This document shows, piece after piece, positions 1,617 through 4,281 of a DNA stretch of 64,000 bases; position 1 is the first letter of the stretch, and each line of letters starts with the position of its first letter. A model generated the notes under the pieces. That model had not been told where the DNA came from. It ran no database searches and saw only the letters and a program-made list of their open reading frames with translations. The stretch covers positions 32,001 to 96,000 of the forward strand of contig CBDCLE010000019.1 in the NCBI GenBank assembly GCA_965218585.1, given 5' to 3'. The stretch comes from Terriglobia bacterium (GTDB lineage Bacteria > Acidobacteriota > Terriglobia > 20CM-2-55-15). A program made the translations under genes and the position numbers.

Positions 1617-2198
<582 letters not shown>

Positions 2199-2238
2199 GG
2201 CGATTACTCACTTCACACGCTCAAATCTGCATAGAGAT

Positions 2239-2287
2239 TTGCCACTAACTCCAGAAGCCCCTAGAATTATTACACTCTAGGGGCTTC
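2239..2287 (+). promoter_or_regulatory. Sigma70-type promoter of the tRNA, overlapped by a 12-bp inverted repeat
   Basis: TTGCCA(2239-2244)-17 bp-TAGAAT(2262-2267). IR GAAGCCCCTAGA(2254-2265)/TCTAGGGGCTTC(2276-2287). Confidence 0.7.
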
Positions 2288-2292
2288 ATTTT

Positions 2293-2378
2293 GGAGAGGT
2301 GGCTGAGAGGTTTAAAGCGGGTGACTTCTAATCACTTGTGGGCACAATCCACCGTGGGTTCGAATCCCACCCTCTCCT
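2293..2378 (+). tRNA. tRNA with serine-type body and long variable arm but anticodon TCT (Arg, AGA)
   Basis: Acceptor GGAGAGG/CCTCTCC. D-arm GCTG-AGAGGTTTA-AAGC. Anticodon arm GGTGA-CTTCTAA-TCACT (TCT at 2327-2329). Variable arm GTGGG-CACAA-TCCAC. T-arm GTGGG-TTCGAAT-CCCAC. Discriminator T, CCA not encoded. Confidence 0.92.
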
Positions 2379-2419
2379 CTAAGCTGCTCTCCCCAAATTC
2401 AATTTTAGTACGACTATCA

Positions 2420-3175
2420 TCACCGAAAGACTGTCATAGGGAAGGTCGAAAACATGAGGCCATCAAAGAATAATCCTATAGCACTTACCGGAGAATCACA
2501 GAACAATGTACCCCTCCTAATTATAAATTCATCCTCTGGAAGACTCAGTATCTCATCTATGAATAGAGTATGACTGCTCTTTGATCCAATAGAAAACTCA
2601 AAGAAGTATTCTTCTTTGTAGAATACTTCTATTGAGCAATTTGCATCTCTATTTTGGTCATTAGCAATTCCCACAGCCATACGCTGCCCAATCTCTACCC
2701 ACTGGTTAATCCACAATGTAAGAAATTCTCCTGGTTGGGAGGAAAAGACAGCTGCTATTCCATAGGGAAAATAGTTAGCGTCATAGAACCCATATTGTAT
2801 GAATGCTGCAACAGGAGCAGTACATTCCAAAGTAGCATATCCAGTCTCTATGTCACTACCAGCACCGGTAGTTCTTACCAACATATTTGGATTATTCTCT
2901 GGAAAAGTAAAAGCTGCCCCATCATCAATTATAGAGAATACCGGACTAGGAACAAGCCGATCTGAGCTTATCCCATAGAGAGTATAAGCACATCGAGGAT
3001 TGTTCGGATAGCTAGTATTGGTAAGGTATAAATGGGAGAAGAAGTGTGCCCCATCCCCAAACTCCCCATCTGCTATCACAGGAAATACATGATAGGTTTT
3101 GGATGTCTCATCTACGTTCTGTCCTAGCGCCGAAGCAGAAACCAACAGAAAAGATAACAAAGTTAGGAATTTCAT
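2420..3175 (-). CDS. Hypothetical secreted protein (transposon passenger)
   Basis: Intact ORF of about 251 aa. GGAG upstream of ATG 3175, signal peptide MKFLTLLSFLLVSASALG, four Cys. Confidence 0.75.
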   Translation of the reverse strand: MKFLTLLSFLLVSASALGQNVDETSKTYHVFPVIADGEFGDGAHFFSHLYLTNTSYPNNPRCAYTLYGISSDRLVPSPVFSIIDDGAAFTFPENNPNMLVRTTGAGSDIETGYATLECTAPVAAFIQYGFYDANYFPYGIAAVFSSQPGEFLTLWINQWVEIGQRMAVGIANDQNRDANCSIEVFYKEEYFFEFSIGSKSSHTLFIDEILSLPEDEFIIRRGTLFCDSPVSAIGLFFDGLMFSTFPMTVFR

Positions 3176-3361
3176 GGAAGGCTCCAATTGAAATCCTATG
3201 CTGAGGGAATGGTACAGAAGAAAGCTATCAGGTAAGATACCGTCTAGGCTAACTCTTCCTCAGCATAGGAGGGTTAGCTCAGAACCCGCTCGGTGACTGT
3301 AACACTGGGCGGGTTCGTCCCAATCCCCTCATAATATCACACATGAGGTTTGCTCAATGAC

Positions 3362-3390
3362 TTGACTTTCACGACAAATCGTGCTCTAAT
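3362..3390 (+). promoter_or_regulatory. Sigma70-type promoter upstream of the putative ncRNA
   Basis: TTGACT(3362-3367)-17 bp-TCTAAT(3385-3390) with a TG extended -10. CACGA/TCGTG palindrome in the spacer. Confidence 0.55.
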
Positions 3391-3405
3391 ACAAGCGGTG
3401 CGGTG

Positions 3406-3624
3406 CATGAATAGAATGAACCAGTCATATCACAAATTCTGAGAGAAAACAGCTCTCAGAAAAGGAGGTGCCATGTGAACGGATTTGGCGGACTACATGA
3501 ACCAACTCCTATAGTGTAGATGAGACGGACACAAGTGCAGGCATTTCTTAGGTTTGGTGGTTACTAATCAATGCCCTGTCCGCCTCATCAATCACCGAGA
3601 CATGACTGGTTCATTCTATTCATG
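3406..3624 (+). ncRNA. Putative structured non-coding RNA
   Basis: Perfect 23-bp terminal IR (3406-3428/3602-3624) encloses a short hairpin (3437-3461), AAAGGAGGTG-CC-ATG-TGA, and a long hairpin (3519-3589). No long ORF. Confidence 0.55.
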
Positions 3625-3714
3625 AATCCTACATAGCAAATTTTCCCCCTTGCAATTTTCGTCCTTCATGTGCTAAAATCAGGTATAGGAAACGACGTAA
3701 GGAGGAAAGAAAAA

Positions 3715-3936
3715 ATGCAAGTTGGACCATCTATCTTATTGCGTGAAATACCACCCGATGGGATTCGTCTGATTCTCCAAAGTACAAATCAACCCCACGA
3801 CATCCCAGGGAAACGTCTCCTTTCAAAAGCTGAGGCTGCTCTTTTAGCTTTTGGGCTTCTTCTGGAGTTAGGGCACACCACGGACAATCAGATTCTTGAT
3901 TCTTTTCATTGGGCTGAGAAATTTCTGCAGCAATAA
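3715..3936 (+). CDS. Small hypothetical protein (73 aa)
   Basis: Promoter TTGCAA-18 bp-TAAAAT (3650-3679), SD AAGGAGG, ATG at 3715. Confidence 0.6.
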   Translation: MQVGPSILLREIPPDGIRLILQSTNQPHDIPGKRLLSKAEAALLAFGLLLELGHTTDNQILDSFHWAEKFLQQ

Positions 3937-4009
3937 CCGAAGAGTGCGTCAAGTTAGTTGACATTTGCTTACCTCCAAGATAAGACGTTGGCAGTCAAGG
4001 AAAAGAGAA

Positions 4010-4228
4010 ATGCAATTCAGCATTGATCGCGTTCAAGGCTTAGTAAATAGAGTTGAACTTGCCGGATCGACTGGAAAGAACAAATTATTGTGCTTGAATT
4101 TTCACCTCGAACCACTACAGCTTCAGTATCTCCCCTTTCAACCTGAAGTCCTCCTTCTAATTGCACCCAACGAGGCACAGAAGCTATCCGACGATCTGCT
4201 AAAGCTTCTAATTCCGCATCAGAGGTAG
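4010..4228 (+). CDS. Small hypothetical protein (72 aa)
   Basis: TTGACA at 3958-3963, AAGGA upstream of ATG 4010. Stop codon abuts the right TIR. Confidence 0.55.
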   Translation: MQFSIDRVQGLVNRVELAGSTGKNKLLCLNFHLEPLQLQYLPFQPEVLLLIAPNEAQKLSDDLLKLLIPHQR

Positions 4229-4251
4229 AGCGTGTCAAGTGAGTAATCGCC

Positions 4252-4273
4252 GAATTTTCGTGTCGAGTTTCAT
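4252..4273 (-). pseudogene. sdhA: First seven codons of sdhA (MKLDTKI)
   Basis: ATG at 4273 just downstream of sdhC. Joins the 1617-2198 fragment in frame across the TSD. Confidence 0.85.
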
Positions 4274-4281
4274 CAGTTGAT

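Follow-up and report, generated by a model that had tools for sequence, protein, structure and literature searches.

Within a 64,000-nt stretch of the genome of a Terriglobia bacterium (the window; GenBank assembly GCA_965218585.1, contig CBDCLE010000019.1, here C19), an earlier note had singled out a 219-bp hairpin element as a putative non-coding RNA. We found that the element lies inside a 2,053-bp mobile cassette without a transposase, which also carries a class II, serine-like tRNA gene with anticodon UCU, a gene for a secreted protein (orf251) and two small open reading frames (ORFs), orf73 and orf72 (Table 1). This passenger-only transposon with its serine-like tRNA(UCU) is a more solid and more interesting result than the hairpin itself.

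Table 1. Features of the cassette and its surroundings, in window positions
Feature	Position	Strand	Description
rve-domain insertion sequence (IS)	1-1616 (genome C19:31761-33616)		multi-copy, 1.86 kb, terminal inverted repeats of ~93 bp
Target-site duplication, left copy	2191-2198	+	GAATTTTC, 8 bp
Left terminal inverted repeat	2199-2222	+	GGCGATTACTCACTTCACACGCTC, 24 bp
Mobile cassette without transposase	2199-4251		2,053 bp; tRNA, orf251, structured non-coding region, orf73, orf72
Serine-like tRNA(UCU), class II	2293-2378	+	long variable arm, discriminator U, canonical 7/5 fold
orf251	2420-3175	-	secreted all-beta protein, signal peptide; uncharacterised domain family found in Acidobacteriota
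Further hairpins of the non-coding region	3194-3348		H-A 3194-3270, H-B core 3282-3316, H-C 3327-3348
Promoter-like site TTGACT-17-TCTAAT	3362-3397	+	spacer holds small palindrome CACGAcaaaTCGTG
Hairpin element, 219 bp	3406-3624	none assigned	predicted four-way junction: closing stem and arms P2, P3 and P4
P2	3437-3445 / 3453-3461		TTCTGAGAG / CTCTCAGAA; perfect 9-bp hairpin, 7-nt loop
P3	3463-3510	+	Shine-Dalgarno sequence (SD) AAGGAGGUG (3462-3470) paired with ACUCCU (3505-3510)
P4	3514-3595		long hairpin; 13-bp core arms GATGAGACGGACA (3519-3531) / TGTCCGCCTCATC (3577-3589)
Candidate promoter TTGCAA-18-TAGGAT	3627-3656	-	directed into the hairpin; putative, read by eye
orf73	3715-3936	+	orphan, 73 aa; strong ribosome-binding site (RBS); scan-listed promoter TTGCAA-18-TAAAAT (3650-3679)
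orf72	4010-4228	+	orphan, 72 aa; stop codon overlaps base 1 of right terminal repeat
Right terminal inverted repeat	4228-4251	-	identical to left repeat at 23/24 positions
Target-site duplication, right copy	4252-4259	+	GAATTTTC; one copy in empty sites of 3 same-genus genomes
First 14 nt of disrupted sdhA-like gene	4260-4273	-	start codon 4273-4271; gene continues from 2190

The cassette interrupts the 5' end of an sdhA-like respiratory gene in this soil acidobacterium. An sdhC-like gene was found in nine of 13 genomes (the host counted), the start of the gene downstream of it was read at the four closest loci (L021-L024), and a motif filter placed the sdhA start in three of these (L021, L022 and L023), all from the same genus. 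In all three the site is empty (ACGAAAATTCC), and the gene starts without interruption as ATGATAAAACTCGAxACGAAAATTCCxTCxGGCCC, encoding MIKL(D/E)TKIPSGPLEKKW. The corresponding gene of the window, read on the minus strand, runs ATGAAACTCGACAC-GAAAATTC-[2,053 bp]-GAAAATTC-CGTCAGGCCC. Since the octamer GAATTTTC stands at both borders of the cassette and occurs as a single copy in the relatives, it represents an 8-bp target-site duplication, and positions 2199-4251 are an insertion into codons 6-8 of the sdhA-like gene. The terminal repeats, the target duplication and the empty site together make the cassette a real mobile unit. A repeat finder reported the borders as a 32-nt inverted pair (2191-2222 and 4228-4259) that includes the target duplication. 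The GC content of the cassette is about 43-45%, compared with a host genome mean of 57.2%, and falls from ~58% to ~43% over roughly 2400-4280. The neighbouring genes match the Pfam families FAD_binding_2 and Sdh_cyt, and the host genome has only one SdhC-type match with the query used. The sdhA-like gene is broken a second time by a multi-copy IS of the rve type that ends at 1616; it has thus been struck by two distinct mobile elements.

In four sequencing runs from a single study, contigs carry the cassette identically, with no variants or joints seen; these runs, whose kind is not on record, may be the window's own source and are not independent support. A look-up of runs that carry the sequence listed none of RNA. 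The left junction is spanned by two contigs, one with no differences from the window and one with only a 3-nt gap. Contigs that span the hairpin, or the hairpin through the right junction, are likewise free of differences. One run contig, ~88% identical to the sdhA fragment, aligns as far as 2190, the base before the duplication, and then diverges from the window, which is consistent with a related strain of the same sample that may have an uninterrupted site.

None of the cassette ORFs has a match in Pfam, PHROGs, PADLOC or NCBIfam, and the cassette carries no gene for a transposase, relaxase, Rep protein or recombinase. Nothing similar to its terminal repeats was found elsewhere in the host, and they have no match in viral contigs. 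In 400 other Terriglobia genomes they gave one match at three mismatches, the same as a reversed-pattern control, and this match has no inverted partner. Elements of the IS256 family generate 8-bp target duplications and were considered as mobilisers; this candidate was rejected, as the ends of the host IS256 subfamilies are unlike those of the cassette.

The cassette tRNA combines a serine-like body (long variable arm, G1-C72, G2-C71 and A3-U70) with a non-serine anticodon. These three acceptor pairs are identity elements of the tRNA-Ser type. Identity to the four tRNA-Ser genes of the host is 69-71% for three and 62% for the fourth, and the acceptor and T arms are the same as those of tRNA-Ser(CGA). 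The host also has an ordinary 74-nt tRNA-Arg(UCU), and AGA is its rarest arginine codon at 5.0 per 1000 codons. Judged by its sequence, the cassette tRNA(UCU) is likely a candidate for AGA-to-Ser missense suppression. It has a scan-listed promoter of its own (TTGCCA-17-TAGAAT, 2239-2267). A perfect 12-bp hairpin followed by AUUUU (2254-2287) overlaps the -10 element of this promoter, its end lying 5 nt short of the tRNA, and may provide insulation from read-in outside the cassette, or regulate the tRNA.

A pattern scan for class II tRNA(UCU) genes in 185,579 species genomes returned 89 loci, and none of them has cassette-like flanks by blastn, tblastn or covariance model. About a dozen (L050, L061, L063, L072, L081, L086, L089, L090, L107, L109, L130 and L132) are bacterial tRNA(UCU) genes with a long variable arm, in hosts that include Patescibacteria, Saccharibacteria, Amycolatopsis, Bdellovibrionales, Alphaproteobacteria, Bacteroidales and Pseudomonadales; the remaining loci are mostly archaeal intron-bearing tRNA-Arg genes. 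A 22-mer of the cassette tRNA had no exact match in metagenome and viral contigs, while five records of a phage collection matched the tRNA part only (76.7%, to tRNA-Ser). In four acidobacterial metagenome-assembled genomes (L059, L069, L093 and L110) a conserved sequence, preceded by CTTCTAA, ends as the 3' T-arm/acceptor half of a tRNA-Ser (…GGGTTCGAATCCCACTCTCTCCGCC). Neither ARAGORN nor Rfam made a call there, and the sequence is probably a tRNA-derived attachment-site repeat of a related integrated element.

The hairpin element is a genuine single-copy orphan structured element and lies within the 450-bp divergent non-coding region between orf251 on the minus strand and orf73 on the plus strand. 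The closing stem, the inner hairpins, the SD, the start-stop pair ATG-TGA and the short GTG-initiated ORF described in the earlier note all proved correct to the base. The 5' arm of the closing stem, CATGAATAGAATGAACCAGTCAT (3406-3428), has its exact reverse complement at 3602-3624, giving a perfect stem of 23 bp; by the repeat finder the pairing reaches 26 nt (96%), past one position that is A.C on the plus and G.U on the minus strand. When the window was dinucleotide-shuffled 100 times, no shuffle contained two matches to the 23-bp inverted repeat, even with three mismatches permitted. The core arms of P4 have a single mismatch, A.C on the plus versus G.U on the minus strand, and all three non-Watson-Crick positions of the element are transitions that keep G.U on one strand. 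Read on the minus strand, P2 is followed by UUUGUGAUAU, which is terminator-like.

The predicted fold is very stable compared with shuffled sequences, at -92.8 kcal/mol on the plus strand (z -7.7) and -102.5 kcal/mol on the minus strand (z -10.3). The interior (3432-3598) is stable too with the closing stem removed (z -3.1 and -5.0, respectively). The neighbouring hairpins H-A, H-B and H-C, of 15, 14 and 6 bp respectively, have a joint z of -6.1; H-B contains two G.U pairs when read on the plus strand. Part of H-B (GGUUCGUCCC) looks like a tRNA T-loop; ARAGORN made no call there even at 75% thresholds, and at low threshold it found no other credible tRNA or tmRNA in the non-coding region of the cassette.

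With regard to coding signals, the full SD (AAGGAGGTG, 9 nt, 3462-3470) stands 6 nt ahead of the GTG start of an ORF (3475-3519) that overlaps ATG-TGA and encodes the hydrophilic 14-aa peptide MNGFGGLHEPTPIV; its codons after the start are AAC GGA TTT GGC GGA CTA CAT GAA CCA ACT CCT ATA GTG. Between GGAGG and ATG there are only 4 nt. P3 encloses ATG-TGA (3473-3478) and most of the GTG ORF. Each arm of the closing stem opens with ATG AAT AGA, and these arm ORFs have no well-spaced SD.

Relatives of the element were sought in about 860 genomes of Acidobacteriota besides the host, and in several broader collections. In the host, BLAST, fuzzy matching (up to 5 mismatches in 23, which returned the two arms only) and a covariance model revealed no second copy. 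The 23-mer arm had no exact match in the 185,579 species genomes, the IMG/VR viral contigs or the JGI metagenome contigs, the P4 arms had none in viral contigs, and a plasmid collection gave no match. BLAST of the cassette or its right half against 60 relatives gave only tRNA-like or chance-level short matches. The same was true of 400 genomes of the phylum, with short matches in 7 of 401 (E 1e-4 to 6e-3). The covariance model (R1), a single-sequence model built from two identical rows, found in 100 relatives one 66-nt match at chance level (19.7 bits, E 0.024 per genome). The Rfam search proposed by the earlier note matched no family: at gathering thresholds in Rfam 15 the tRNA is the sole match in the window, and the best result of a permissive scan over 3406-3624 was a plant miRNA model (15.4 bits versus a gathering threshold of 245, E 1.5). 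A T-box-like sensing of the tRNA by UGGUGGU in the P4 loop was considered and rejected, as Rfam gave no T-box match and the motif would need an A discriminator to pair with, where the tRNA has U.

We tentatively favour the inference that the element may be transcribed, as a structured leader or a small RNA of the cassette, from one strand or the other; any regulatory effect is inferred as well. Several observations speak for an RNA: the stability of both the whole element and its interior above shuffles, together with the structured neighbouring region; a multi-branched four-way junction rather than a simple foldback; a 9-nt SD that is well spaced for GTG and pairs in P3 with the anti-SD-like ACUCCU; the confinement of non-Watson-Crick positions to transitions; and promoter-like hexamers that face the element from both sides. 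That the cassette is a real mobile unit also counts in favour. If the element is transcribed, a closing stem of such length and perfection would lend itself to stabilisation or to processing by RNase III, and P3, by concealing a full-strength RBS, would gate ribosome access to the 14-codon ORF or to the start-stop mini-ORF. An intrinsic terminator is missing behind the closing stem in both orientations, so a leader (to orf73 if read from the plus strand, to orf251 if read from the minus strand) is as likely as a discrete small RNA. The palindromic TTGCAA (3651-3656) is a possible -35 element both for the plus-strand orf73 promoter and for TAGGAT (3632-3627) on the minus strand, and a promoter with the latter as its -10 could begin transcription at the edge of the hairpin; the consensus promoter scan did not report this site.

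The following points weigh against an RNA. Of the promoter that the earlier note had placed upstream of the stem, the fit to consensus at 10 of 12 positions holds, but the key adenine at position 2 of the -10 hexamer is absent and the site is missing from the list of the consensus promoter scan. The lack of a terminator counts on this side too. The strand signals clash: the plus strand is indicated by the SD and both G.U pairs of H-B, the minus strand by the three G.U/A.C positions and the folding energies. As no homologue was found, there is no covariation to draw on, and R1 had no match upstream of 29 loci encoding orf251-family proteins; the element is therefore not a conserved leader of that family. 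A stem of 23 bp devoid of G.U pairs resembles a recent repeat at the DNA level more than it does an RNA helix of long standing.

The last of these structural points leads to the main rival, which we regard as somewhat unlikely: a nested miniature inverted-repeat transposable element (MITE) or foldback relic that landed in the cassette before the cassette reached this genome, its structure a DNA-level by-product without function. The element resembles MITEs in its size of 219 bp, its perfect 23-bp terminal inverted repeats, its strong folding and its lack of a convincing ORF, and the host is rich in insertion sequences, with 111 matches to the IS256-type transposase family (PF00872). Its flanks, GCGGTG and AATCCT, have nothing in common; the only candidate duplication is the outermost CATG, a palindrome, such that a 4-bp target duplication could hide inside the repeat. 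However, MITE copies in unrelated contexts, which the earlier note had named as a refutation of its reading, did not turn up: the element is single-copy in the host with no copy in the collections searched, which argues against a proliferating MITE. It also has no partner IS, as no host IS has similar ends (within 5 mismatches of the 23-mer; those of the IS256 subfamilies differ), and a MITE would not need a branched-junction interior with a full SD. A cis-acting DNA site, such as an origin of transfer, a single-strand origin, a recombination site or a protein-binding cruciform, is improbable. As DNA, perfect repeats can fold to the same extent on either strand, and the element occupies the non-coding hub of a mobile element; yet the DDE signature of the cassette (terminal repeats plus duplication, from cut-and-paste or copy-paste movement) does not call for an internal site, the cassette lacks genes for a relaxase, Rep or recombinase, and the 173 bp between the arms would be unusual for known origins of transfer.

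The interpretation in the earlier note found support in part, and its likenesses to known RNAs failed on defining features. It had compared the element to RNAs that poison translation through an SD and a minigene, as in lambda bar and CreT, and had suggested a ribosome-binding toxic or regulatory RNA in functional partnership with the tRNA; we consider this quite improbable. The element does share with those systems a strong SD, a start codon, a very short ORF ended by UGA and stable downstream stem-loops, the same cassette carries a tRNA that reads the rarest arginine codon of the host, and both closing-stem arms begin with ATG AAT AGA. According to the report on Haloarcula CreT, this RNA acts on tRNA-Arg(UCU), and its toxicity requires two consecutive minor codons directly after the start (PMC8501985). 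In the element, by contrast, TGA follows ATG directly, the GTG ORF has neither AGA nor consecutive rare codons, the SD is sequestered in P3, and neither the 4-nt spacing to ATG nor the arm ORFs offer a well-placed start. A search for RNA duplexes between the hairpin and the tRNA or the three RBS regions yielded diffuse structures with no specific hairpin-tRNA complementarity, a search that was itself uninformative. The proposed partnership stands insofar as both lie on one cassette; it amounts to co-carriage, with the tRNA 1 kb away across an opposite-strand gene, and beyond that nothing supports a functional pairing of the tRNA with an RNA that is toxic or poisons ribosomes. Very improbable, too, is a protein-free, RNA-only selfish module of a new kind, in which the hairpin RNA and tRNA(UCU) would manipulate translation jointly: the RNA would bind ribosomes or mimic SD/anti-SD pairing, the tRNA would compete with the rare tRNA-Arg(UCU) of the host at AGA, and the whole would be a device for addiction, exclusion or stress mistranslation. 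It also appears highly implausible that the element is an orphan msr-msd RNA of the retron type that depends on a reverse transcriptase (RT) encoded elsewhere. The plus-strand order of a 5' arm, two small hairpins and a long hairpin beside the 3' arm, downstream of a promoter-like site, is retron-like, as are the complementary ends that enclose them. However, no RT lies adjacent or anywhere in the cassette; the absence of an RT gene from the window was borne out, with none of the 13 RVT_1 matches of the genome on its contig, and these matches are multi-copy frames of ~450 aa, group II intron-like. The downstream ORFs of 73 and 72 aa belong to no family, Rfam gave no match, and the closing stem of 23 bp is longer than is typical for the a1/a2 repeats of retrons. 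Equally far-fetched is a hok-like type I toxin mRNA whose 5' and 3' ends pair with each other: long-range pairing and a sequestered SD are present, but the only SD-served ORF is the hydrophilic 14-mer, and neither strand offers a hydrophobic toxin ORF of 25-60 aa.

Among the other cassette genes, orf251 has three distant metagenomic homologues (31-33% identity, 45 invariant columns). Its profile matched in 40 of 401 genomes of the phylum (G106 counted), and the host has a paralogue with 25% identity. Its look-alikes in a protein atlas are unnamed acidobacterial clusters (0.97), and the predicted structure, with a mean pLDDT of 59.8, was too low in confidence for a fold search. No clear signal of AGA/AGG recoding was seen in orf251, its four such positions corresponding to S/P/P, Q/A/A, V/V/V and S/S/T in the three homologues. 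Low GC notwithstanding, both the tRNA and orf251 suggest that the cassette comes from an acidobacterium. The RBSs of orf73 and orf72 are strong or moderate; the two ORFs have no mutual similarity, and neither they nor an antisense ORF have a homologue.

If the hairpin is an RNA, it would be an orphan structured RNA of ~220 nt, belonging to no Rfam family and travelling on a passenger-only transposon. If it is only a nested MITE, it would represent routine mobile-element wear in an eroding genome. With its clean borders, the cassette provides a 2-kb construct in which Arg-to-Ser mistranslation, mobilisation in trans and the hairpin's role can be tested directly.

Among known systems, the 2,053-bp unit as a whole resembles mobile insertion cassettes (MICs), such as MIC231 of Bacillus cereus, in having IS-like terminal repeats, a target duplication and passenger genes without a transposase. 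It differs from them in two respects: a cognate IS with ends like its own turned up neither in the host nor in the 400 Terriglobia genomes or viral contigs, and a tRNA gene and an extensive structured non-coding region are among its passengers. For the tRNA, the closest comparison is with the acidobacterial allo-tRNAs and other missense-suppressor-like tRNAs, which Mukai et al. 2017 found with AGA/AGG anticodons and close to transposons and toxin-antitoxin genes (PMC5389517; review PMC7609411). Nothing resembling the hairpin is described in the passages of PMC5389517 consulted. Like the allo-tRNAs as presented there, the cassette tRNA is serine-like and acidobacterial, has a long variable arm and a non-serine anticodon (UCU, for AGA/AGG), and resides on mobile DNA; in contrast to them, it has a 7-bp acceptor and a 5-bp T stem instead of an 8/4 or 9/3 arrangement, together with a U discriminator. 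A serine-type tRNA of canonical fold that is expected to read AGA would thus carry the allo-tRNA story (PMC5389517) over to an ordinary 7/5 tRNA that bears clean scars of transposition.

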